Shown: one piece after another, positions 10,499 through 59,950 of the stretch
Layout: each line of letters starts with the position of its first letter
How positions within the stretch are numbered: the first letter of the stretch is position 1
DNA from: Bacteroidota bacterium
Lineage (GTDB): Bacteria > Bacteroidota > Bacteroidia > Chitinophagales > Chitinophagaceae
Length of the DNA stretch: 64,000 nucleotides
NCBI GenBank assembly: GCA_029555415.1
Contig: JAKPSI010000067.1
Coordinates: 18,515-82,514 of the forward strand
Direction of reading: 5' to 3'
Program-made: the position numbers and the translations under genes
Notes under the pieces: generated by a model
The model's database searches: none
Seen by the model: the letters and a program-made list of their open reading frames with translations, nothing else
Told to the model about the DNA's origin: nothing

Positions 10499-10549
10499 CC
10501 GGCAAATAGTTACTTTCTAAAACATGAATTGCTTCCGGGGAGCAGGGAT

Positions 10550-10632
10550 CCATTCTCCATTCTCCGTTATCCACTATCCATTATCCATTATCCATTATCC
10601 ACTATCCGTTCTCCATTATCAATTATCATATT
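10550..10632. repeat. Tandem oligo-repeat array (ATTCTCC/ATTATCC units; reverse of the GGAKAATG module)
   Basis: ccattctccattctccgttatccactatccattatccattatccattatccactatccgttctccattatcaattatc. It abuts the GCS2 stop. Confidence 0.85.
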
Positions 10633-11735
10633 CCGTGCAGGTACTGGTCCTGAATGTAACCCACTACCTGACTGAGGTCCTTGGTCTTTTCGAATACGGC
10701 CAGCTGGCGGTCAGCGCCCGTTCCGTTCTCCAGGATCTTGTGTACATAAGCCAGGCGGTGCCTGCTTCCCAGATGATCCAGTACGGGTTCCACGAATTCC
10801 AGTAACTCATAGATCAGCGCACGGGTATTTACTTCCTCTTCTTTGCCGAAATCGATCAGACGGCCATCGATACCATAACGGCTGGCGCGCCATTTATTCT
10901 CATTGATGAGCGGACGCGGGTATTGAATGAAGTTGAGATTCTTGCTGCGCAACATATAGATCCTCGCGCAAATGGCCTGGAATAAGGCCGCGATCGCTAT
11001 CGTTTCATCCACTGTCATCGGCACATCACAGATCCTGAATTCAACAGTATTGAAGAAGGGATGCACACGCAGGTCCCACCAGATCTTCTTCGCATTGTCA
11101 ATGCAATTCGTTTTGATCAGCAGCTTCACATAGTTATCGTATGATTCAATGCTGTCGAACGCTTCCGGAATACCGGTACGCGGGAACTTGTCGAATACTT
11201 TCGTGCGGAATGATTTATAGCCGGTCAGCCTTCCTTCCCAGAAAGGGGAGTTGGTACTGAGCGCGTAAATATGCGGAAGGAAATAACGGGTGGAATTGGC
11301 GATATGATTGGCCATCTCACGCGTTTCCATACCCACGTGAACATGCAAACCAAAGATGAGATTACTTCTTGCAGCTTCCTGTAATTCATTCACGATCTCG
11401 CTGTAGCGGATATGGTCCGTGATCAGCTGACTTTCCCAGTGACTGAACGGGTGCGTTCCCGCCGCGCCCATGGAGTAGCCCAGACTGCTTGCGATACCGC
11501 TGATGGTCTTGCGCAGGGTGGCCACATCCGCCCATGCTTCATCCACATCGGCACAGATGTCCGTACCTACTTCCACAACGGCCTGGTGCATTTCTGCCTT
11601 GACCTTGTCCTTGATCACTTTCTGACCCTCATGTACGATCTGCTGTTCATGGCTTTTCAGTTCCCTTGTTACCGGGTCCAGCACCATGTACTCTTCTTCT
11701 ACGCCGAGTGTGAAACTTTTATAATTCAGATGCAT
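10626..11735 (-). CDS. Glutamate-cysteine ligase family 2 / YbdK-type carboxylate-amine ligase
   Basis: 'FTLGVEEEYMVLD', 'GTHPF', 'GLHVHVG', 'LSTNSPFW' and 'WWDLRVHPFFNTVEFRICD' all match YbdK/GCS2. Confidence 0.85.
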   Translation of the reverse strand: MHLNYKSFTLGVEEEYMVLDPVTRELKSHEQQIVHEGQKVIKDKVKAEMHQAVVEVGTDICADVDEAWADVATLRKTISGIASSLGYSMGAAGTHPFSHWESQLITDHIRYSEIVNELQEAARSNLIFGLHVHVGMETREMANHIANSTRYFLPHIYALSTNSPFWEGRLTGYKSFRTKVFDKFPRTGIPEAFDSIESYDNYVKLLIKTNCIDNAKKIWWDLRVHPFFNTVEFRICDVPMTVDETIAIAALFQAICARIYMLRSKNLNFIQYPRPLINENKWRASRYGIDGRLIDFGKEEEVNTRALIYELLEFVEPVLDHLGSRHRLAYVHKILENGTGADRQLAVFEKTKDLSQVVGYIQDQYLHGI

Positions 11736-11763
11736 ATTGATTGTTTAGATGCTACTTAGATCG

Positions 11764-11800
11764 GACTACTGACTAACGACTAATGACTAATGACTATAGC
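11764..11800. repeat. Tandem GACTAA/GACTAC hexamer-type repeat
   Basis: gactactgactaacgactaatgactaatgactat. The same family recurs, inverted at 13744 and direct at 51760. Confidence 0.8.
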
Positions 11801-12747
11801 CCAAGGTTCTGTTTTTGTGAACTTCGTTTTACATACTCTCCCCACGTCAGATTATCACCACCGTTATTCGCCAGTGCTTTTTCGATGGCGTAATTGGCGG
11901 CGGTTTCCACCACCCATTCAAAGTTCTCTTCACCAACACTGGTCAGTTCCGCATCCGGAGCGGGGTTGCAGAAGTCGATGGCATAAGGTACGCCATCCCT
12001 TACCGCCAGCTCCACAGTGTTGAAGTCGTAACCCAGGAATTTATTGATCTTGAGAACGATGTCGGTCATTTGTTTCAGTCTTTCCGGAGAAGGATTGAAA
12101 TCGGCCACATACCGCAGGTGGTGCGGGTTGCGGGGTTCGTACGACATGATGCGGACATGCTTGCCACCGATGCAATAACAGCGGTAGTATTCCGTGAACA
12201 CGATCTCTTCCTGCAGCAGCATCACCAGTTGTCCGGTTTCGCTGTGCTTCTCGAAGAAATCGTTGGAGTCCGTAAGTTTATATACGTGTTTCCAGCCGCC
12301 ACCCGCGAAAGGTTTCATATATGCGGGAAAGCCAACGTATTTGAAGATCGCATCCCAGTCGAGCGGGAATGCCAGATTACTGAATGATTCATTACTCGTA
12401 TCATCCGGCAGATCACGGGAGGGGAGGATGACCGTTTTCGGAACGGGCACATCCACTTTCGTCATCAGGCAATTGTTGAAATATTTATCATCCGCACTCC
12501 ACCAGAACGGATTGTTGATGACAGCTGTTCCGGTGAGCGCAGCATTCTTCAGCCAGGTGCGGTAAAAAGGTACATCCTGAGAGATGCGGTCGATGATCAC
12601 AGCATAACCGCTGGATTCGCCCTGCATGGCTTTATCGATACGTACCGGTTCGGCAACGATACCCGGGATATTCTTACTGTTCACACGTGATACGAAGGTT
12701 TCGGGGAAGGAGCGTTCTTTCCCGTGCAGGATGCCGATCTTTTTCAT
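11794..12747 (-). CDS. ATP-grasp-fold ligase (putative peptide/amide ligase)
   Basis: 317 aa. 'AYMKPFAGGGWKHVYKL' has a Lys + Gly-rich loop. 'VELAVRDGVPYAIDFCN' looks like an ExN-like Mg site. A pre-ATP-grasp N-domain 'KKIGILHG' is present. It sits directly downstream of GCS2. Confidence 0.5.
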   Translation of the reverse strand: MKKIGILHGKERSFPETFVSRVNSKNIPGIVAEPVRIDKAMQGESSGYAVIIDRISQDVPFYRTWLKNAALTGTAVINNPFWWSADDKYFNNCLMTKVDVPVPKTVILPSRDLPDDTSNESFSNLAFPLDWDAIFKYVGFPAYMKPFAGGGWKHVYKLTDSNDFFEKHSETGQLVMLLQEEIVFTEYYRCYCIGGKHVRIMSYEPRNPHHLRYVADFNPSPERLKQMTDIVLKINKFLGYDFNTVELAVRDGVPYAIDFCNPAPDAELTSVGEENFEWVVETAANYAIEKALANNGGDNLTWGEYVKRSSQKQNLGL

Positions 12748-12925: not shown

Positions 12926-13747
12926 ATGCACCGTGTACAGGATTCCTCCCTTCACATAGAATCGGATACTATTGAATCGGCATTTCTCGGGAGAGAAGTG
13001 AAAGTGGATTATTACTGCCCCACAGCGGTACCGGACCCTTCCCGGATGAGCCTGCTGCTGATCAATGATGGACAGGATATGGCAGCCATGCATTTCAGTG
13101 CCATTCTGGAAAAACTCTTTGCCGGGAAAAAGATCGAACCCATTCTTTGTGTCGCGATCCATTGCGGACCGGAACGGAAAATGGAATATGGGGTAGCGGC
13201 TGTACCTGATTACCTCGGCAGAGGAGCGAAGGCCGGGGCTTATACTTCATTCCTGTTTGAGGAATTGCTGCCCGGACTCCGTGAAAAGTTCAACGTTCCT
13301 TCTTTTAAAGAGAAAGCTTTCGCCGGTTTTTCACTGGGCGGACTCAGCGCCCTGGATATCGTCTGGAGCCATCCGGCTGAATTCAGTAAAGTGGGTGTAT
13401 TCTCCGGTTCATTCTGGTGGCGGAGTCTGGATCAGTCGGATGAAGCATATGACGACGATCTCCACCGCATCATGCATCAGCAGATCCGTAACGGCGCCTG
13501 CCAGCCCTGGCTGAAGTTCTTTTTTCAGTGCGGTGCCCTGGATGAGACCAAGGACCGTAACCATAACGGCATCATCGACTCCATTGATGATACCCTCGAT
13601 CTGATCTCTGAACTGGAGCAGATCGGCTACGACCGCAATACCGATATTCAATATCTCGAACTTCCGGATGGCAAACATGATGTTGCCACCTGGGGGAAGG
13701 CGATGCCGGCATTCCTGGAGTGGGCATTCGGAACGAGTAGTTTGTAG
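12926..13747 (+). CDS. Esterase-family alpha/beta hydrolase (PF00756-like 'putative esterase')
   Basis: 'AGFSLGGLSALD' nucleophile elbow, 273 aa, divergent from the ATP-grasp gene. Confidence 0.6.
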   Translation: MHRVQDSSLHIESDTIESAFLGREVKVDYYCPTAVPDPSRMSLLLINDGQDMAAMHFSAILEKLFAGKKIEPILCVAIHCGPERKMEYGVAAVPDYLGRGAKAGAYTSFLFEELLPGLREKFNVPSFKEKAFAGFSLGGLSALDIVWSHPAEFSKVGVFSGSFWWRSLDQSDEAYDDDLHRIMHQQIRNGACQPWLKFFFQCGALDETKDRNHNGIIDSIDDTLDLISELEQIGYDRNTDIQYLELPDGKHDVATWGKAMPAFLEWAFGTSSL

Positions 13748-13771
13748 TCTTTAGTCGGTAGTCTTTAGTCC
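13744..13771. repeat. Tandem GTAGTCTTTAGTC repeat (inverted GACTAM family)
   Basis: gtagtctttagtcggtagtctttagtcc, immediately after the esterase stop. Confidence 0.8.
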
Positions 13772-14007
13772 TTTCTAAGCAAAGTTATTTACAGATTCGT
13801 CTAATGATTTTTTTTGGGCTGTTCCGGGTTGCGGGTTTCTGGTTGCGGGTCGCGCCGTTGAAAGCAGCACGCCGTGGCCGGTATATTTCACCTATCATCG
13901 GGTTTTAAAATCGATTTAATGTAACTGCAACTAATATCTGGATGTTAATATAAAATGGTTATGCAGCAGGGGAGATGAAGTGTATGTTAGAACCCTCTTG
14001 CAGCGTA

Positions 14008-14036
14008 TAGCTTGAAGCTTGCAGCTTTATATAGTA
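14008..14036. repeat. AGCT-family short repeat (agcttgaagcttgcagct)
   Basis: Same AGCTNNNAGCT motif family as at 26108, 39245, 40762 and 59655. Confidence 0.6.
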
Positions 14037-14041
14037 AAAAG

Positions 14042-14075
14042 AAAAGCCCGTCATATGACGGGCTTTTCTTTTATC
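14042..14075. terminator. Bidirectional rho-independent terminator
   Basis: aaaagcccgtcatatgacgggctttt, a perfect hairpin flanked by A/T runs between convergent genes. Confidence 0.75.
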
Positions 14076-24523: not shown

Positions 24524-24560
24524 CCGCAGATTTCGCAGATATCGCGGATATCGCAGATTT
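24524..24560. repeat. CGCAGATWT x4 tandem array
   Basis: cgcagatttcgcagatatcgcggatatcgcagattt. This is the inverse of the array at 25101. Confidence 0.85.
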
Positions 24561-24648: not shown

Positions 24649-25026
24649 TTATAAATTATTCACCTTTCGGAATATGGATTTACTGATATTGGAAGAGTTG
24701 AAATTGACAAGTAATCCCAGTTTCAATCCGGATAGACGCAGGTAAGTCAGCACCTGTTTATGGTGAATTTCAGCGATCAGTTTTACAGACTTGACCTCAA
24801 TGATCACCTTCTCCTCTACCAGAATGTCGATCCTGAATCCTGAATGCATCGAATTGTTCTTATAGTAATAGGGCAACGACACTTCGTGTTTGATCTGTAA
24901 GCCCAATGACTTCAATTCGTCTGCCAGTGCTTTGCAGTACACGGACTCCAAAAGTCCCGGCCCCAGATTATTATAGACTTGAAATATGGCTTTTCTGATC
25001 AGATAGGAAATTTCATTCTCATGCAT
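24649..25026 (-). CDS. GxxExxY-family protein (PD-(D/E)XK nuclease fold)
   Basis: 'GPGLLESVY' motif, and 'RIDILVEEKVIIEVKSV' carrying the D..E.K catalytic-like motif. 125 aa, typical family length. Confidence 0.85.
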   Translation of the reverse strand: MHENEISYLIRKAIFQVYNNLGPGLLESVYCKALADELKSLGLQIKHEVSLPYYYKNNSMHSGFRIDILVEEKVIIEVKSVKLIAEIHHKQVLTYLRLSGLKLGLLVNFNSSNISKSIFRKVNNL

Positions 25027-25100
25027 ATTCTTTTCGGGTGAATGTATATTGGATCACAGTTGTTCAGTTTGGTGTTTTATGGGGGATTTTAAGTGTAAAC

Positions 25101-25140
25101 CATCTGCGTGATCTGCGTTTTCATCTGCGAAATCTGCGTT
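25101..25140. repeat. ATCTGCG x4 tandem array (about 10-bp period)
   Basis: catctgcgtgatctgcgttttcatctgcgaaatctgcgtt. Confidence 0.85.
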
Positions 25141-25235
25141 CCCCCACCGGGTTATGCAGATGTTTTTCACATCCCAAAAAGGCAAAGTACTGTGCGGAGG
25201 GGAATGGACGTTATTACTTTAGGAGAAAGAACAAG

Positions 25236-25499
25236 ATGAACAAAAATGATCTCCCCTTTTATCTTAGAAAAACCATCCACAAGGTCTTTAACAGCCTGGG
25301 GCCCGGCTTATTTGAATCCGTTTACGAGCAGGCATTATGCGAGGAATTGTCAGAAATGGGATTGAAATTCCGGCCAGCCCGCATGTGCTCCGGTGTTTGT
25401 AATGAACACGATCAGGAAACATCATCGATCCTCGTAGAGGAACAGGTGCTGGTCGGTACCGGAACTTATCCCTGGCGAGTTGAATTGTATCAGCCCTGA
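25236..25499 (+). pseudogene. Truncated/degenerate second GxxExxY-family gene
   Basis: An AGGAG RBS precedes it. 'FNSLGPGLFESVYEQALCEEL' is conserved, but the sequence diverges after about 50 aa and ends at 'ILVEEQVLV' without the E.K strand. 87 aa against 125 for the intact copy. Confidence 0.45.
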
Positions 25500-26099: not shown

Positions 26100-26107
26100 G
26101 ATGAAAT

Positions 26108-26263
26108 GGCTTATAGCTATTAGCTGTTAGTGTGTTCTAATTTACTTTTGTTTTACAGAAGAGCTTATGGCTTTCTCTCTTAACTCTTACCTATTACCTA
26201 TTACCTTTCACCTCTGTTATCCATTCTCAATTATCCATTATCCATTATCAATTATCCATTAAT
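26108..26263. repeat. Composite intergenic repeat: AGCT module + GTGTTCTAA + CTTACCT module + ATTATCC module
   Basis: ttatagctattagctgttagtgtgttctaa ... cttacctattacctattacctttcacc ... ttatccattctcaattatccattatccattatcaattatccatt. It ends at the ggt stop. Confidence 0.85.
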
Positions 26264-39075: not shown

Positions 39076-39111
39076 TTTGGAGTGGTTTAGAAATGCGAAG
39101 ATAGAGGATAA

Positions 39112-39300
39112 ATAATAATGGAGAATTGATAATGGAGAATTGATAATGGAGAATGGATAATGGAGAATGGATAATGGGGGACAGTTGAAAGGTAACAGGT
39201 AAAAGGTGAGAGGTAAAAGGGGAAGAAGCTTCTGGGTAGCCTGATAGAATATACTTGCAGCTTGTAGCTAAAAGCTTGCAGCTACAAGTTAGAAGCTAAT
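39112..39300. repeat. Composite intergenic repeat: GGAGAATKG module + AGGTRAMAGG module + AGCT module
   Basis: aatggagaattgataatggagaattgataatggagaatggataatggagaatggataatgg .. ggtaacaggtaaaaggtgagaggtaaaagg .. gcagcttgtagctaaaagcttgcagctacaagttagaagctaa. Confidence 0.85.
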
Positions 39301-40728
39301 TTTTACTGTCGTCCGCCCGTTCTTCGTCTTGCGTTTCCATTTCGGGCCTTCTTTGATGAGGCGGATGGCTTCTTTGTCGCAGGAACTGCACAAAGATTTT
39401 TCGATACGGATGTCGGAGGGTTCGCCATTCTTATCCACTTCGAAGGAGACTTCCACTTCGCCGCCGGACTTCGCTTTTTGACTGCGGTACTCGTTGGGCA
39501 TCACGAGATTATTGGCGAGGTAAGTATCATAATTGTCCCAGCCATCGGAAGGCTCGGGCTCTGTGAGTTTGAGATTGTTGTTGCGGGCGTGCAGGTCAGT
39601 GTTCGGTTTAAGGCTGTAGAAGACAAATGAACCAATGGTCGTGTCTTCCCTTAATGTGATCTGATTACTCGGCAGATAATTGCGCAGCAGAACATTGCTG
39701 TTGTTGAAACCGACCGATCTGACCTGAACGTTCAGGATGGAATCGGGAGAGGTGAGATTGAAGAATCCGCGTGCGTCGGCATATGTGCCCACATTGTCCT
39801 CCACATTGGTGATATTGGCAAAGGGTAGTGGATTATTGTTTTTATCCAGCACCCGGCCACGGAAATTGTTGAAGTTGTAAGCGATGTTCTGTTGTTTTTT
39901 TACCTCCTGATTCAGCTGGAATGCCTTTGCATTAGCTGTTCTTGCTTGTTTGTCATCAGATGAAGTGGTGATGAATCCCTGTACATTATCAAGGTCCCGT
40001 TTACTTTGTATGCTTACTTCCGGTTTGTCTTTCCCAGGGGCTTTATATATTGCGGTCAGTTCTTTGTTGGGTGCAGGCGCAGAAACAGAATTGATCGTTA
40101 CGGGCTTCGCCTGCGCATAGCCATTGCCTGATGAGCTGATCTGAAAAGTGTCGGTAACACCTTTAAGTGGTGGAGATGAGATCGTGATTGACTTCGTATC
40201 CGCCTGTGTCTGTTTCTGTGTGTTCAGGTAGTTGTAATTATTATTGCCTTGCGGAATGGACTGGGGTTTCAGGGTATCAGTGAAAGTAACCGTGTTTCCG
40301 CCTTGCAGGGTTACTGAATCAGGTTTTGCCGGTGCTTTTTCTGCGGAGATCACAGGTGTTTCCTGTTTCACTTCATTCTTTGCCAGTTCAGTTTTGTTGC
40401 TTTTGAACAGGAATACATAAGCCGGCAGACCTGCACCCGCCAGAATAATGACAGCAGCTGCCACGCGCAGCCAGGGGAATCCGGTTTTGCCTGAACCCAG
40501 ATGCAGCACTTTGCCGCTCTCTACTCTTGCCTTCAGACGCTGCTGCAGATCCTGCATATCCGTTGCGCCAACACCTGCAGCCGCATAACCCTCCAACGCA
40601 TCCGCCAGGAAGGGGTCTTCCAGTGCGGCCTTCTCCATGGCATTCCTTTCCTTCGGAGAAAGGAGTCCCTGCTGATACCGTAGGATATCTTCGGGGGAGA
40701 ATTGGGGTATGTTGTTTGCGTCGGACAT
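39289..40728 (-). CDS. Anti-sigma-factor-like membrane protein with CarbopepD_reg-like and TonB-C-like C-terminal domains
   Basis: N-terminal cytoplasmic anti-sigma-like domain, one TM helix (LRVAAAVIILAGAGLPAYVFLF), low-complexity linker, 'GRVLDKNNNPLPFANITNVEDNVG' and C-terminal 'SGGEVEVSFEVDKNGEPSDIRI'. It lies directly downstream of the ECF sigma. Confidence 0.55.
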   Translation of the reverse strand: MSDANNIPQFSPEDILRYQQGLLSPKERNAMEKAALEDPFLADALEGYAAAGVGATDMQDLQQRLKARVESGKVLHLGSGKTGFPWLRVAAAVIILAGAGLPAYVFLFKSNKTELAKNEVKQETPVISAEKAPAKPDSVTLQGGNTVTFTDTLKPQSIPQGNNNYNYLNTQKQTQADTKSITISSPPLKGVTDTFQISSSGNGYAQAKPVTINSVSAPAPNKELTAIYKAPGKDKPEVSIQSKRDLDNVQGFITTSSDDKQARTANAKAFQLNQEVKKQQNIAYNFNNFRGRVLDKNNNPLPFANITNVEDNVGTYADARGFFNLTSPDSILNVQVRSVGFNNSNVLLRNYLPSNQITLREDTTIGSFVFYSLKPNTDLHARNNNLKLTEPEPSDGWDNYDTYLANNLVMPNEYRSQKAKSGGEVEVSFEVDKNGEPSDIRIEKSLCSSCDKEAIRLIKEGPKWKRKTKNGRTTVKISF

Positions 40729-40761
40729 TATATATGTAAAGTTCCTATTTTTTGATCAAAC

Positions 40762-40895
40762 TCTAAAAGCTGCAAGCTATTAGCTACAAGCTGCAAGGGT
40801 GTTCTAATTAGCCTCTGTTGTTTGTTGTATGTAAAATATTCCATGAACAACAGGTGCCATTATCCATTTTCCATTATCCTTTCTCCATTTTTTCT
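40762..40895. repeat. Composite intergenic repeat (AGCT module + GTGTTCTAA + ATTATCC module)
   Basis: aagctgcaagctattagctacaagctgcaagggtgttctaattagcc ... ccattatccattttccattatcctttctccatt. The last unit runs into the sigma-factor C-terminal codons. Confidence 0.85.
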
Positions 40896-41532: not shown

Positions 41533-43551
41533 ATGAAAAGAATATTCTACGTGCTGGCACCGGTGATGATCCTGCTGCTGGCTTTCCGCCAGGTGTATAC
41601 GTTCAGTATGTCCGGTAAGGTCACAGATGCCGGCGGTAATCCCATTGCCAATGTGAATATCCGTGAAAAAGGGACCCGCAATGGTACTGTTGCGGATATC
41701 AACGGGAATTTCAAGATGGTCGTTAAAGACAGTAATGCGATCCTGATCTTCAATGCAGCGGGTTATGAGTCGATGGAGATCAGTCTTTCCGGCAAATCAA
41801 ATGTGAATGCGGTCATGACATTGGATACGAAATCGGTATCTGAAGTGGTGGTAACTGCTATGGGTGTAAAAAGGGAAGAAGATGGCTACAGCGCGCTCGT
41901 GCCTGGCAACACATACAAACCCGCTGCACCACGCAGGGATCTCACCGGAGCGCTGAGCGGAAAAGTTTCAGGTGTGCAGGTCAATGGATACGCTACAAGT
42001 TACAATCAGAAAACGATCACGTTAAGAGGTATCAGTAGCTTCAACACGAATAAACAAGTGCAAAATCAGTATCAGGGATACATTAGCGATGAGTCCTATG
42101 ATAAGATCACGGAAAATACATTCCAGGAAGTAAGTGCGAATCCGCTCTCCACTTTTTCTATCGATGTAGATGCCGCCTCCTACAGCAATGTGCGCCGTTT
42201 CCTCAATCAGGGACAACTGCCACCCGCCGGCGCCGTGCGCATCGAAGAGATGATCAACTATTTCCATTATGAATATCCGCAGCCTATGGAAGGACAACCG
42301 TTCTCCATCAATACGGAGATCACGAACGCGCCCTGGAATAAGGACCACAAACTCGTGCTCATCGGATTACAGGGCAAAAAGATCCCGATGGAAAAACTGC
42401 CCCCTTCCAATATCGTTTTCCTGGTGGATGTTTCCGGTTCCATGGCCGAGCCCAATAAATTACCCCTCGTGAAATCATCGATGAAAATGCTGGTGGAACA
42501 GCTTCGGGAACAGGACAGGATCTCGATGGTGGTGTATGCCGGCAATGCGGGACTGGTGCTGCCTCCTACGAGTGGCGCGGAAAAAACGAAGATCAAAGAC
42601 GCGATCGACAGACTCGATGCCGGTGGCTCCACCGCTGGTGGCGCAGGCATTCAGCTGGCCTATAAAACAGCGAAAGAGAATTTCAAAAAAGAAGGGAATA
42701 ACCGGGTGATCCTTTGTACGGACGGTGATTTCAATGTGGGTGCCTCCAGTGATGCCGATATGGAACAACTGATCGAGAATGAAAGGAAGAGTGGTGTGTT
42801 CCTGACCGTGCTGGGATTCGGCATGGGTAATTATAAGGACAGCAAGATGCAGAAGCTGGCTGATAAAGGCAATGGTAACCATGCTTATATCGATGGTATC
42901 ACTGAAGCGAAGAAGGTTCTGGTGAATGAATTCGGCGGTACCCTGTTCACGATCGCCAAAGATGTGAAACTGCAGCTGGAATTCAATCCCGCCAAAGTGC
43001 AGGCCTACCGCCTCATCGGTTATGAGAACCGTATTCTGGCCAAAGAAGATTTCAATGACGATAAAAAAGATGCGGGCGAACTCGGCAGCGGCCATACCGT
43101 GACTGCCTTGTATGAAGTGATCCCGGTGGGCGTGAAATCATCCTTCGTGAAAAAAGTGGATCCGCTGAAATACCAGGAGAATCCGGTGGCGCTCAGTCCT
43201 TCATCCCATACCGATGAGATCCTGACCGTGAAATTCAGGTACAAAGCACCGGATGCGGATGTCAGCAAACTGATCGAACAGCCGGTACTGGATAAAGGGA
43301 TCGCGCTGACGAAGTCAAGTGAGAATCTGCAGTTCGCGGCCGCAGTGGCCGAATTCGGAATGCTTTTACGCAATTCTGAATTCAAACAGCATTCCACTTT
43401 CGGTGATGTCATTTTCATGGCACGCCGTTCAAAAGGAGAGGACAAAGACGGATACCGTTCTGAGTTCATTCGTTTGGCAGAAAGCGCGGAGTTGCTGGCG
43501 AAAGGAGGAACAGTTGAGGAAGATGAAGAAGAAACGGAAGGGGATAGATAA
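41533..43551 (+). CDS. YfbK-like von Willebrand factor A protein with N-terminal CarbopepD_reg-like domain (vWA + DUF3520-like tail)
   Basis: Start trimmed to MKRIFYVLAPVMILLLA (signal peptide). 'SGKVTDAGGNPIANVNI', MIDAS 'FLVDVSGSM', 'STAGGAG'. Confidence 0.7.
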   Translation: MKRIFYVLAPVMILLLAFRQVYTFSMSGKVTDAGGNPIANVNIREKGTRNGTVADINGNFKMVVKDSNAILIFNAAGYESMEISLSGKSNVNAVMTLDTKSVSEVVVTAMGVKREEDGYSALVPGNTYKPAAPRRDLTGALSGKVSGVQVNGYATSYNQKTITLRGISSFNTNKQVQNQYQGYISDESYDKITENTFQEVSANPLSTFSIDVDAASYSNVRRFLNQGQLPPAGAVRIEEMINYFHYEYPQPMEGQPFSINTEITNAPWNKDHKLVLIGLQGKKIPMEKLPPSNIVFLVDVSGSMAEPNKLPLVKSSMKMLVEQLREQDRISMVVYAGNAGLVLPPTSGAEKTKIKDAIDRLDAGGSTAGGAGIQLAYKTAKENFKKEGNNRVILCTDGDFNVGASSDADMEQLIENERKSGVFLTVLGFGMGNYKDSKMQKLADKGNGNHAYIDGITEAKKVLVNEFGGTLFTIAKDVKLQLEFNPAKVQAYRLIGYENRILAKEDFNDDKKDAGELGSGHTVTALYEVIPVGVKSSFVKKVDPLKYQENPVALSPSSHTDEILTVKFRYKAPDADVSKLIEQPVLDKGIALTKSSENLQFAAAVAEFGMLLRNSEFKQHSTFGDVIFMARRSKGEDKDGYRSEFIRLAESAELLAKGGTVEEDEEETEGDR

Positions 43552-43612
43552 TAAATGATAATGGATAGTGGATAATGGAGAGGTGATAGGTAAGAGGTGA
43601 GAGGTAATGGAA
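43545..43612. repeat. Composite repeat (GGATARTGG module + GGTRAGAGG module)
   Basis: gatagataataaatgataatggatagtggataatggagaggtgataggtaagaggtgagaggtaatgg. It overlaps the vWA stop codon. Confidence 0.8.
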
Positions 43613-46328: not shown

Positions 46329-46832
46329 ATGAAAGTAAATCTCCGTTCGTTCAAGCAAAAGGTTCGTCACAACCGCAGTATCTTCCGTCGTTTCATGACC
46401 AAGCTCGAGAAGAACCCGCCGAAGGGTCTCGACCAGCTGACCACCGTCGTGGAAAAAGAAGTATGGAAAGAAGTGGACTGTCTGACCTGCGCCAATTGCT
46501 GCAAGACCATGACGCCGACCTATACCCCGGCCGATCTCAAACGTATTTCAAAGCATCTCGGCATGACCGTGGATGAGTTCAAGAAGAAATGGCTGTACAA
46601 GGAAAGGGGCAGTGGCGACTGGATGAACAAAAGCACTCCTTGCCAGTTCCTCAACCTGAAGGATAATAAATGCAGTATCTATCTGCAGCGTCCGGTCGAC
46701 TGTTCCGGATTCCCGCACCTCCCCAAAAAGAAAATGGTGGACTGGATGCATATCCACAAACAGAATGTGGAGTATTGCCCGGCGACCTACAAGATGGTGG
46801 AGAAGATCAAAGCGCGGATGGAAGCCGAATAA
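46329..46832 (+). CDS. YkgJ-family (UPF0153) Cys-cluster protein
   Basis: 'CLTCANCCKTMTP' CxxCxxCC motif and downstream 'CQFL..C..Y..RP..C'. Confidence 0.7.
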   Translation: MKVNLRSFKQKVRHNRSIFRRFMTKLEKNPPKGLDQLTTVVEKEVWKEVDCLTCANCCKTMTPTYTPADLKRISKHLGMTVDEFKKKWLYKERGSGDWMNKSTPCQFLNLKDNKCSIYLQRPVDCSGFPHLPKKKMVDWMHIHKQNVEYCPATYKMVEKIKARMEAE

Positions 46833-46836
46833 GGAC

Positions 46837-47134
46837 GGGAAATTTTGAATTTTGAGTTTTGAATTGGGACCAGAAACGGATTCAAAATTTAAAATTAAAA
46901 ATTCAACGAAGAGTCGTTAAAGCAGATTGCGAACTGCAATAGGCTTTGCGTAAAGGCTTTAAATCCCATTCATTTTTCCGAGAACGGATATCAGTAGAAA
47001 CTCATTGTGTCCAACGCCACACATGGCTTTAGTACAGCTTCGATTGAAAAGAGTCTTGTATTAATTTTGAATTTTTAATTCTGAATATCTTTCTCTTCAA
47101 TTCAAAACTCAAAATTCAGAATTCAAAATTTCCC
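46837..47134. repeat. MITE-like palindromic element with ~32-bp terminal inverted repeats and nested inner inverted repeats
   Basis: Left TIR gggaaattttgaattttgagttttgaattg. Right TIR caattcaaaactcaaaattcagaattcaaaatttccc. Inner IRs are at 46881-46906 and 47061-47086. It fills the whole gap between the ykgJ and yraN stop codons. Confidence 0.6.
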
Positions 47135-47491
47135 TCATAGGAAAACGTCTTCCAGCATAAAGTACTCCGCCTCCCGTCCCTTCATCAGCGTTATCGCCAG
47201 AATATCGTACTGCACCCAGCTGTGTCCCGGGTTCAGGAACAGGAACTGATCGGTGGCGCGTTGCAGGCGTTTGAACTTCTTACGGCTTACATGTTGTTCC
47301 GGGTGTCCGGCGCGGGTGAACCAGCCGGTCTTCACTTCAATGATATGCAGCACGCCGGTTTTCTGTGCGATGATATCGATCTCAAAATAGGAGTAACGCC
47401 AGTTGCGGTGCAGGATAATAAAACCCTGTTGCCTGAGCCAGGCCGTGGCCATTTCTTCACCGAGCTTTCCAAGGTCATTATGATCTGCCAT
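47135..47491 (-). CDS. yraN: YraN-family (UPF0102) endonuclease-fold protein
   Basis: 'GEEMATAWLRQQGFIILHRNWR..EIDIIAQ..HIIEVKTG'. Confidence 0.8.
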   Translation of the reverse strand: MADHNDLGKLGEEMATAWLRQQGFIILHRNWRYSYFEIDIIAQKTGVLHIIEVKTGWFTRAGHPEQHVSRKKFKRLQRATDQFLFLNPGHSWVQYDILAITLMKGREAEYFMLEDVFL

Positions 47492-51645: not shown

Positions 51646-51660
51646 AGATAGCAGGTTATT

Positions 51661-51793
51661 GGATAGTTGATAATGGATAATGGAGAATGGAGAATGGAGA
51701 ATGGAGAATGGATAGTTAGGAGGTGATAGGTAAACTCACGTCCTGAACTTCAAAGAAGTGACTACCGGCTAATGACTACAGGCTACCGACTGC
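51661..51793. repeat. Composite intergenic repeat (GGAGAATGG x4 module + GGTGATAGGTAA + GACTACMGGCTA module)
   Basis: ggatagttgataatggataatggagaatggagaatggagaatggagaatggatag .. aggtgataggtaa .. gactaccggctaatgactacaggctaccgact. Confidence 0.85.
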
Positions 51794-51795
51794 TC

Positions 51796-58059: not shown

Positions 58060-58145
58060 GAGAGGTAAAAGGTAAGAGGTAACAGGTAAAAGGTAACAGG
58101 TAAAAGGTAACAGGTAACAGGTAAGAGGGATAAGGTGAAAGATAA
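58060..58145. repeat. Tandem AGGTAAMAGGTAAC repeat array
   Basis: gaggtaaaaggtaagaggtaacaggtaaaaggtaacaggtaaaaggtaacaggtaacaggtaagagggataaggtgaaag. Confidence 0.9.
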
Positions 58146-59654: not shown

Positions 59655-59950
59655 ATGGGCTAGTAGCTAATAGCTAACAGCTAGTGGCTATATTTTAACC
59701 ACTGAGGCACGGAGAATTGAGTTTCTTTGAGATTCGGAAGTTCGCCAAAGACGTTTGAGTACACGGGCTGCGCGTGGCGCAGCAACGAGGATAAAATGCA
59801 GACTTGGTTCTGTTAGAACACACTGGCAGCTAATAGCCAGCAGCCAGTAGCCATCAGCTTTCTCCTGAATTCAACTACAAAGCGATCAGAAAAAGGTGAG
59901 TACAGTTTTCCTTAGTATAATCTAGCAGCTAATAGCTGGCAGCTATTTTT
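59655..59950. repeat. Two AGCTAATAGC-type arrays flanking a ~120-bp unique core
   Basis: gctagtagctaatagctaacagctagtggctat ... ctgttagaacacactggcagctaatagccagcagccagtagccatcagc ... tagcagctaatagctggcagctat. Confidence 0.8.

Follow-up and report, generated by a model that had tools for sequence, protein, structure and literature searches.

Tandem arrays of 7-nucleotide (nt) units have been reported in bacteria as STRRs (short tandemly repeated repetitive sequences) since 1990 (Mazel 1990, via PMC4692102 and PMC4679880), and heptanucleotides are, as a later paper summarizes the 2007 work, the commonest class of long simple sequence repeats (SSRs) in most genomes (Mrazek 2007, via PMC4679880), possibly because about 7 nt contact the polymerase during slippage (Mrazek 2007, via PMC4679880 and PMC4692102). 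Here we analyse arrays of this kind in a 64,000-nt stretch of a Chitinophagaceae genome (contig JAKPSI010000067.1, positions 18,515 to 82,514; hereafter the window). The arrays belong to a repeat class that is known but unexplained; what is new is their modular, ordered arrangement in Chitinophagaceae, which resembles the bacterial interspersed mosaic elements (BIMEs) of enterobacteria. We put at roughly 55% the reading that they are dispersed heptanucleotide arrays of the STRR/long-SSR class, assembled in one oriented composite and maintained at the DNA level, with no role as gene-specific switches.

Repeats of TAACTGA are known from Beggiatoaceae, Cyanobacteria and five Bacteroidetes (MacGregor 2015, PMC4679880), and spacers of Gramella and Aequorivita hold other heptamer arrays that are missing from close relatives (PMC4679880). 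Like the window arrays, TAACTGA repeats are intergenic direct repeats of a heptamer with a patchy spread across phyla that includes Bacteroidetes, but they mostly comprise 2-6 units in 'forward' orientation a few nt upstream of start codons, where translational control has been suggested (PMC4679880); the window arrays are orientation-independent, often lie at stop codons and use other units. Arrays of GGGAATC in Xanthomonas and GGGGAYT in Nostoc are intergenic, occur on both strands and are depleted between divergent genes (Rehm 2015, PMC4692102). In Xanthomonas, GGGAATC forms 'convergent' inverted pairs (70 and 75 cases), and the arrays vary between Xcc and Xac, are unlinked to mobile elements or surface genes and yielded no regulatory role (PMC4692102). 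The window shares the intergenic position, both strands, the divergent-gene depletion, the convergent pairs, the variation between species and the lack of ties to mobile elements or surface genes. However, the Xanthomonas and Nostoc units carry G-tracts that form G-quadruplexes, which the window units, with at most two consecutive G, cannot do, and Xanthomonas has essentially one unit whereas the source genome has four or more in an ordered composite.

A protein that reads heptads is known from plasmid pSM19035, whose ribbon-helix-helix protein omega/ParB binds gapless 7-bp heptads whatever their orientation, provided that there are four or more, within a plasmid system that has 7-10 heptads at three promoters (PMC9499535). 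The window arrays are likewise built of contiguous 7-bp units, but they are chromosomal, lie at dozens of loci and use several units. The plasmid system has a single unit sequence, WATCACW. STRRs resemble the window arrays in being tandem 7-nt units of several families per genome at dispersed, mostly intergenic loci; the window arrays are not STRRs in the strict sense (STRR1-3 of the heterocystous cyanobacteria Calothrix and Anabaena), as the host is one of the Chitinophagaceae and the units differ from CCCCAGT, TTGGTCA and CAACAGT, the canonical STRR units. We know of no description of fixed-order families with a unique anchor among STRRs.

The arrangement itself is closest to that of repetitive extragenic palindromic (REP) sequences and BIMEs in enterobacteria and of REPINs in Pseudomonas, which are species-specific, dispersed and extragenic, are concentrated, in both orientations, at gene 3′ ends and within operons, and form ordered mosaics of a few motif types with linkers. 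REPs are imperfect palindromes of about 20-40 nt and are linked to a REP-associated tyrosine transposase (RAYT). The composites in the window form just such an ordered extragenic mosaic of motif types in both orientations, but from tandem heptads rather than palindromes. An earlier reading of this DNA, made from the letters alone (the sequence-only reading), had called them 'REP-like', which holds as an analogy and fails as a description, the elements not being palindromic REPs. No RAYT (Y1 HUH transposase) was found among 20 proteins scanned in the window.

Heptad arrays and their composite

The feature is genuine and statistically overwhelming. A period scan of the window found 14 arrays at period 7 (0.3 in locally shuffled sequence) and none at periods 3-6, 8 or 10-13; at a laxer threshold there were 25 period-7 arrays, 894 bp in total, against 1.4 in shuffles. 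Tandem Repeats Finder (TRF) returned period 7 for every listed site, with additional 14- or 21-nt super-periods, and together with our own scan gave 3-12 head-to-tail copies of the unit length typical of the heptanucleotide long-SSR/STRR class. Matches to the patterns KGAKAATx2 (KGAKAATKGAKAAT), AGGTRANAGGTRA and TAGYYNNx3 (TAGYYNNTAGYYNNTAGYY) numbered 20, 18 and 11, where 0.00, 0.02 and 0.00 were expected. Within 64 kb, family A occupies seven sites, family B five and families C and D at least eight, a dispersed recurrence that also characterizes the class. The sequence-only reading had listed 11 array sites, and arrays are present at all of them, far beyond chance. Its unit lengths of 8, 13, 18 and 6 nt were wrong, it did not recognise the known repeat class, and it overlooked the GTTGCGG array and two (AATTTTG)n inverted pairs (Table 1). 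It had rightly set aside CRISPR arrays, in which repeats of 23-50 nt alternate with unique spacers of similar length; here the 7-nt units are contiguous and without spacers, which rules such an array out.

Four unit families account for the composites. Family A is GGAKAAT, with the variants TGATAAT and GGATAGT, family B is AGGTRAN, family C is AGCTNNN and family D is GACTANN. Families C and D can be aligned with each other and have a common TAGYY core (TAGCT/TAGTC), so that the AGCT and GACTA modules, previously taken as separate, are one related family.

The families are joined in a constant order and orientation: a C or D array, a non-repeat anchor, about 45 nt of variable sequence, a B array (TTACCTN) and an A array (CCATTMT). 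This order was seen at 26100-26263 (+), 39076-39288 (-), 40729-40873 (+) and 51646-51795 (-). The anchor reads AG-GTGTTCTAA, or AGCTGyaAG-GTGTTCTAA in its longer form. Behind a C or D array it is present as GTGTTCTAA, or nearly so, at 26132, 40799, 59813 (-) and 13987 (-). Two copies are degenerate, at 39242 and at 51750; at the latter an anchor-like CAAAGAAGT precedes the D/C array on the + strand. Four of the five GTTCTAA heptamers in the window adjoin a C array. The same composite had been proposed for 26108, 39112 and 40762; the first two are complete (A+B+C), whereas the third lacks B and consists of C, anchor and A. The copy at 51646-51795 has D in place of C (A+B+D), the site at 43545-43612 has A and B only, and C plus anchor stands alone at 59811-59858 and 13985-14029. 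Because they have a common anchor and module order, the composite copies are homologous, and the claim of a composite as such is upheld. A search with a hidden Markov model of the anchor (nhmmer) matched solely copies in the source genome.

Two properties of the units themselves were proposed and rejected. The arrays do not appear to supply stop codons in all three frames, stop triplets being found in 194 of 275 arrays with the real units and in 177 with composition-matched shuffles, and unique units taken alone were no different from such shuffles; nor is there a strong purine/pyrimidine asymmetry (52% against 45% expected, p = 0.1). The Bacteroidetes promoter motif TAnnTTTG occurred too seldom in the window to be informative. 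In the A arrays at 39088-39175 and 40859-40887 we observed a ladder of sigma-70-like promoter matches (TTGATA/TGGAGA, 17 nt, GATAAT/GAGAAT), which arises because every heptad holds a -10-like hexamer; it is probably irrelevant in a Bacteroidota host, although A-type arrays also occur in phyla with TATAAT promoters.

Table 1 Heptad arrays and associated features in the window
Position	Strand	Feature	Context
10547-10629	-	A array, 11 heptads (TGATAAT/GGAKAAT)	found by TRF, pattern search and period scan
10626-11735		GCS2 gene	TGA stop supplied by bases 1-3 of the first TGATAAT heptad
11762-11801	+	D array (GACTAMT), 5 heptads	between the stop of a 317-aa gene and the GCS2 start
13736-13773	-	D array, inverted (TAGTCNN on + strand), 4 units	directly 3′ of an esterase stop codon
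13821-13854	+	GTTGCGG array, about 5 units	absent from the sequence-only list
13985-14036	-	C array and anchor	+ strand reads TTAGAACCC, then AGCTTGA AGCTTGC AGCT
26108-26140	+	C array (GGCTTAT AGCTATT AGCTGTT) and anchor AGTGTGTTCTAA	adjoins the start of a DinB-like gene
26176-26262	-	B array (about 5 units), then A array (about 6 units)	A end lies at the gamma-glutamyltranspeptidase (GGT) stop codon
39112-39222	+	A array (about 9 heptads, 14-nt super-period), 14-nt linker, B array (about 5 heptads)	
39242-39300	-	C array and degenerate anchor	- strand reads AGCT heptads, then AAGTATATTCTA; overlaps the stop codon of the TonB_C/anti-sigma-like gene
40762-40808	+	C array (5 heptads) and anchor AGGGTGTTCTAA	upstream of the anti-sigma-like gene
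40855-40889	-	A array (about 4.5 heptads)	extracytoplasmic function (ECF) sigma gene stop codon lies within it
43551-43608	+	A array running in register into B array	occupies the whole 45-bp spacer that separates the VWA gene from the Plug/type IX secretion system (T9SS)-tail gene
46839-46907		inverted pair (AATTTTG)n...(CAAAATT)n	directly 3′ of the stop of gene 46329-46832; hairpin-forming
47059-47131		second (AATTTTG)n inverted pair	directly 3′ of the stop of gene 47135-47491 (- strand)
51660-51735	+	A array (about 8 heptads), then 2 B heptads	
51750-51793	+	D/C-type array (GACTACC GGCTAAT GACTACA GGCTACC GACTGC)	abuts the stop codon of a LytTR regulator
58060-58145	+	B array, about 12 heptads (14- and 21-nt super-periods)	3′ of the GH30 gene stop
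59657-59685, 59811-59858, 59925-59945		three C arrays, the second with anchor TTAGAACAC	330-bp spacer, unique sequence between the arrays

Gene context and change between species

Arrays lie mainly in a particular kind of spacer. Of the 25 arrays in the laxer set, 23 are intergenic or straddle a gene end, and arrays cover about 14% of the 5.5 kb of intergenic DNA in the window. Of 26 tandem or convergent spacers 11 carry arrays, against none among 8 divergent ones (Fisher p = 0.034). An array often begins at a stop codon, and in the window, as in three of the relatives, the first TGATAAT heptad opens with the TGA of GCS2. Among tandem spacers, the purine-rich strand of the A and B arrays falls on the sense side three times and on the antisense side three times, and the cumulative GC skew climbs monotonically over the window, yet arrays point both ways. 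Array orientation therefore tracks neither transcription nor replication, in agreement with the earlier claim that arrays lie irrespective of transcription direction.

The genes beside the arrays are ordinary chromosomal ones, among them a GCS2 ligase, GGT, a DinB-like gene, an ECF sigma/anti-sigma-like pair, a VWA gene, an (acyl-CoA) carboxyltransferase, a LytTR regulator, GH30 and TamB, and no mobile-element gene adjoins an array in the window.

Independent assemblies reproduce the arrays exactly. Contigs from ERZ761562/UOWE, ERZ27257438, UPSM and ERZ773284 (European Nucleotide Archive) and from JGI 3300010345 and 3300010342 match the window at 99.8-100% identity through the arrays, with no indels, so the arrays are not the assembly artefacts that the sequence-only reading had named as its possible undoing. 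Several of these assemblies are labelled as coming from activated sludge. Terrimonas sp. NA20 has a GCS2 protein 90% identical to the one in the window, whose close matches are often labelled 'MAG: Chitinophagaceae bacterium' (MAG, metagenome-assembled genome); the host is an activated-sludge Chitinophagaceae bacterium related to Terrimonas, and the arrays are chromosomal. Short-read contigs of related Chitinophagaceae (L153, L155 and L163-L168) all end inside an A array (...CCATTCTCCATTATCCATTCTC), and one 40-kb metagenome contig (L148, 1-4792) tracks the window from 53587 to 51672 and diverges inside a (CCATTCT)n A array, where GC content goes from 47% to 59%. The likeliest reading of that contig is a chimeric assembly whose two parts meet in a heptamer array common to another member of the community; a real recombinant is less likely. 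These contig ends and the switch in L148 indicate that A arrays are numerous and common to several community organisms, evidently with many near-identical copies per genome that break assemblies. Together with the homologous non-repeat anchor, the contig ends bear out the proposal of dispersed elements. In practical terms, such arrays break, and even chimerise, short-read metagenome assemblies.

A role in phase variation, which the sequence-only reading had entertained, would make the arrays contingency loci at which frequent changes in heptad number switch the neighbouring genes. Seven-bp repeats in the hmw1A promoter of Haemophilus influenzae are a known switch of this type, and array copy number does differ between species in whole units. 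However, the neighbours are housekeeping genes (GCS2 ligase, GGT, acyl-CoA carboxyltransferase, TamB) rather than surface, restriction or virulence promoters, a good many arrays are found at 3′ ends or between two genes that converge, independent metagenome assemblies of the strain show one and the same consensus throughout the arrays, and there are dozens of arrays per 64 kb instead of a few. We regard such switching as highly improbable.

Comparison with relatives shows which parts of the arrangement last. The GCS2 protein of the window is 97.6% identical to that of L152 at 69% third-codon identity, and two Terrimonas-type loci, L157 and L158, encode an identical GCS2 protein at 65% third-position identity; strong constraint on GCS2 combined with such third-position divergence means that the compared loci come from different species. 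An interpretation of rapid array turnover between near-identical strains was withdrawn, as protein identities of 97-100% mask third-position differences of 31-36%. The A array at the GCS2 stop has 11 heptads in the window, 6 in L152 and L154, at least 6 in L153 and L155 (contig end) and 5 in L156, and it is kept in L152 and L156 at third-position identities of 64-69%; L152 and L153, at 98.4% nt identity, differ inside this array, where the L153 contig ends. Upstream of GCS2, the D array has 5 heptads, with substitutions, in L152-L155, and inverted pairs of other units stand in its place in L156, L157 and L158. The D array at 13736-13773 has 5 units in L156 against 4 here.

The composite is conserved over greater distances. 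Downstream of the anti-sigma-like gene, L163 carries C plus anchor (92% identity), then B, then A, and its B array at the 39112 site has 10 heptads against 5 in the window (73 against 38 nt, a difference of exactly 35 nt). In L164-L166 the sequence of C, spacer, B (8 heptads, TTAYCTN) and A (CCATTMT) is unchanged in order and orientation, with the sigma protein 86% identical and the third-codon identity of the sigma and VWA genes at 56%, near saturation. A C array also lies between the sigma and anti-sigma genes in L163 and in L164-L166. L167 and L168, of the same lineage as L164-L166 and syntenic with 51.8-60.5 kb of the window, retain the B and A arrays, in this order, downstream of LytTR, and a C/D array follows their outer membrane protein gene. 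Terrimonas units differ (GATGGCC, GATGGTC, GTTGTCC, AAAAGTA, GACCGCA) and occur mostly as inverted pairs; a (TACTTTT) array there has 13 units in one case and 18 in another. Copy number thus differs between species in whole heptads, the length variation known from long SSRs and STRRs and in keeping with the suggestion of slipped-strand hotspots. Across the sequences compared, unit families and module order are long-lived at the genus level, while copy number, and sometimes module content, changes.

The same comparisons bear on whether the composites or inverted pairs are non-autonomous mobile elements, akin to MITEs (miniature transposable elements with inverted repeats) or REPINs and moved by a transposase acting in trans. 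Homologous copies with a unique, lineage-specific anchor in both orientations are what such elements would leave, the fixed hairpin polarity described below is like that of REPINs, which are recognised as single-stranded hairpins, and the junction of LytTR and LuxE measures 1 nt in L160 but is occupied by a heptamer hairpin of 57 bp in L158 and by an insert of 363 bp in L157, the last bounded by inverted (GACCGCA)n/(TGCGGTC)n arrays. Yet an AGCT-type array closes the composites at one end and a CCATTMT array at the other, unlike MITEs, with no terminal inverted repeats, target-site duplications or conserved termini; the loops of inverted pairs are unrelated between sites; no transposase or RAYT-like gene was seen in the window or the loci examined; and the persistence of composites at orthologous positions across species is atypical of active MITEs. 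We consider mobility of this kind rather improbable.

Several further observations concern neighbouring sequence. The TonB_C/anti-sigma-like gene (39289-40728) is 79% identical in nt, 75% in amino acids and 63% at third positions to its counterpart in L163 (1236-2669), and the adjacent ECF sigma gene is 95% identical in nt and 97% in amino acids, which suggests accelerated evolution or recombination limited to a gene bracketed by two composites. In Terrimonas-type loci the spacer after GCS2 (L157 11111-11966, L158 11111-11991, L160 11111-11681) holds a strongly conserved segment, GCAGGCCGGTTAGAAAACCACCTGCGGTTGGTCTTACGACCGTTCACATGAGAAAA, with no Rfam match, which could be an unannotated RNA or small gene. 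Two adjacent PDDEXK_3 (PF13366) genes lie at 24649-25499; one of them was called as 87 aa in another assembly of the organism (L147 1117-1380) and as 153 aa here, and a 9-nt repeat, CGCAGATAT, in 3.8 copies (24525-24558) and a 21-nt repeat with ATCTGCG (25101-25140) lie nearby.

Hairpins and the polarity of inverted pairs

Folding separates the composites from the inverted pairs. The A/B composites fold no better than shuffles (z about 0); as purine-rich direct repeats of this behaviour they lack the palindromic units of REPs, BIMEs and REPINs. Only the C arrays and the inverted pairs are self-complementary, and the copies of C plus anchor have no common or conserved fold. A terminator scan returned nothing within the composites, which argues against intrinsic termination there, and supports the earlier statement that the arrays are not simple terminators. 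A canonical bidirectional intrinsic terminator (AAAAGAAAAGCCCGTCATATGACGGGCTTTTCTTTT), with its hairpin at about 14040-14072 (14037-14075), does stand beside a C array, showing that the genome uses ordinary terminators besides arrays. A search of Rfam gave nothing at the gathering threshold, and weak matches at E values up to 0.5 were due only to this terminator at about 14.04 kb.

By contrast with the A/B composites, inverted pairs can fold strongly. The (AATTTTG)n pair at 46839-46907 has a predicted energy of -21.6 kcal/mol (z = -4.5) and that at 47059-47131 one of -15.2 kcal/mol (z = -1.9); these hairpins are AT-rich and without a discrete U-tract. Both genes that converge on the spacer 46833-47134 have their own (AATTTTG)n hairpin straight after the stop codon, and a similar hairpin of the same unit occurs in a Thermoanaerobaculia MAG (L036 7427-7505). 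Two inverted pairs in Terrimonas fold with z = -6.4 and -9.9.

These features bear on whether the arrays act as RNA, namely as terminators, stabilisers, C-rich Rho-loading sites or binding arrays for Csp, S1 or RRM proteins. Arrays lie where at least one gene ends and in none of the divergent spacers of the window, the inverted pairs after stop codons fold strongly, one window pair reaching z = -4.5 and Terrimonas pairs -6.4 and -9.9, and a role as a post-transcriptional regulator has been proposed for TAACTGA (MacGregor 2015, PMC4679880). But the A/B composites and C plus anchor show no such structure, no Rfam family matched at its gathering threshold, a canonical terminator coexists at 14040-14072, and a purine-rich strand that is sense in three tandem spacers and antisense in three would oblige both complements to work. 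An RNA role fits the hairpin pairs and not the composites, and a sense-specific RNA element is without support; as a general account we judge it quite improbable.

In a set of at least 120 foreign loci, neighbouring arrays of the same unit were very often inverted, and the inverted pairs have a preferred polarity. Among 46 decided cases (L003-L122, L157, L158 and the window pairs at 46839-47131, with the L076 palindrome left out), 43 combine a G-rich 5′ arm with a C-rich 3′ arm and 3 show the reverse. The bias persists with both arms pooled (52 against 8), for units unrelated to the search pattern (29 against 7, p = 3e-4) and when counted by unit family (26 against 6). The A/T skew of the arms was not significant outside the families of the search pattern, and the loops between arms are unrelated from site to site. 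A separate observation is a perfect palindrome of about 530 bp in a Patescibacteria MAG (L076 3200-3730), with nested ATACAAG and CGACATC heptamer arrays, which represents an inverted duplication or else an artefact of assembly.

Directional growth of the arms was rejected as the cause of this polarity, unit decay being similar in outer and inner halves (27 against 19, p = 0.3). The lack of an outer-to-inner gradient also counts against repeat addition at DNA ends, in which a templated or slippage-prone enzyme would add G-rich heptads to the two 3′ ends at a break and the ends would then be joined, leaving convergent G-rich arrays. The polarity (43 of 46, and 29 against 7 for other units), the 'convergent' pairs of Xanthomonas (PMC4692102) and de novo palindromic inserts at the junction for which L160 has a single nt are all as such an enzyme would produce them. 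But the many units per genome would demand many templates, no reverse transcriptase or similar gene was seen, and the non-inverted A-B-C composites would stay unexplained, leaving this mechanism very hard to credit.

Distribution and explanation of the arrays

Heptad arrays of this type extend well beyond the source genome. The sequence-only reading had advised looking in related genera, and the same units are indeed present in related Chitinophagaceae, with A-type arrays in many phyla. A scan for three A-type heptads, with one genome per species, returned at least 120 loci, whose taxon counts are non-quantitative. Among the matches listed are filamentous Cyanobacteria (Okeania, Dapis, Rivularia, Trichodesmium and Symploca), Bacteroidota (Saprospiraceae, Chitinophagia, Cytophagaceae, Prevotella and Flavobacteriales), Blastocatellia, Planctomycetota, Patescibacteria and others. 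In the 8-kb loci around these matches, period-7 arrays of many units are abundant and arrays of period 5, 6, 8 or 9 almost absent. Crude spacer classes from rough open reading frame calls, to which we give little weight, put the share of spacers with arrays in these loci at 50% for convergent, 39% for tandem and 32% for divergent ones. A-type heptads (TGAGAAT, CCATTCT, TGGAGAA, GGGGAAT) were also observed in arrays in genomes with a GC content of 0.66-0.68 (L053, L086, L112 and L117); AT-rich heptads in GC-rich genomes imply that the unit is not simply amplified local sequence.

One account would be that the arrays are a neutral by-product of a replicative or repair polymerase that, in these lineages, slips preferentially by 7 nt, the arrays growing wherever selection is weak, as in non-promoter spacers, with no function and no copying between sites. 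A constant period of 7 over dozens of unrelated units in many phyla does point to a mechanical cause; arrays stop exactly at coding boundaries, their load is very uneven among syntenic relatives, many orthologous spacers hold different units, and the units show neither stop-codon enrichment nor a strong purine rule. However, slippage alone does not predict a few families at many loci in a fixed order with a common non-repeat anchor, families that persist at orthologous sites despite near-saturated synonymous divergence, AT-rich A-type arrays in genomes of 66-68% GC or a polarity rule for inverted pairs. Neutral slippage by itself thus seems unlikely.

The reading that we favour combines slippage with maintenance. 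The composite fills spacers that hold at least one gene 3′ end, in either orientation, and arrays often start from the stop codon. On this reading array length would change by slipped-strand mispairing in steps of 7 or 14 nt; and the families would be propagated or maintained at the DNA level, by analogy with REP/BIME mosaics, because the arrays are orientation-independent. The most likely reason for their maintenance may be either that contiguous heptads give a heptad-reading protein a platform for cooperative binding or that the repeat propagates itself and is tolerated. The arrays would not be gene-specific switches, and inverted arrays of the same unit would additionally form very stable hairpins at gene ends.

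A number of observations weigh against this reading. The 92% identity of C plus anchor in L163 is close to the 91% of third positions in the adjacent sigma gene, and conservation beyond neutrality was rejected for this segment, no purifying selection being shown at that distance. The spacer between GH30 and Kelch holds 12 B heptads in the window and an anchor with a C array in L167/L168, and the syntenic L160 has 1 array against 11 in L157 and 8 in L158; such differing or empty orthologous spacers mean that no single site is indispensable. The composite alignment shows neither terminal inverted repeats nor target-site duplications, and scans of the window found no trans-acting factor, transposase or RNA family. 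Slippage is deduced solely from differences between species, no length variation having been seen within a strain, and the view of the source genome spans 64 kb.

A more specific proposal, which we offer tentatively, is that the arrays are the cis-sites of a widespread trans-acting system, either a reader in 7-bp register or an enzyme that propagates heptads, which would keep the families, build the platform and impose the polarity. Over-representation of heptanucleotides has been noted since 1990 for STRRs and since 2007 for long SSRs, without a mechanism or function. To this the locus adds a lineage that has relatives in culture (Terrimonas) and whose few unit families form a fixed, oriented composite with a unique anchor, comparative evidence that families and order outlast synonymous saturation while copy number moves in whole heptads, and syntenic array-rich and array-poor sister genomes as material for a phyletic search for the responsible factor. 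If the proposal of cis-sites is true, it would provide a mechanism for the STRR/heptamer-SSR class of Cyanobacteria, Bacteroidota, Xanthomonas and Beggiatoaceae.

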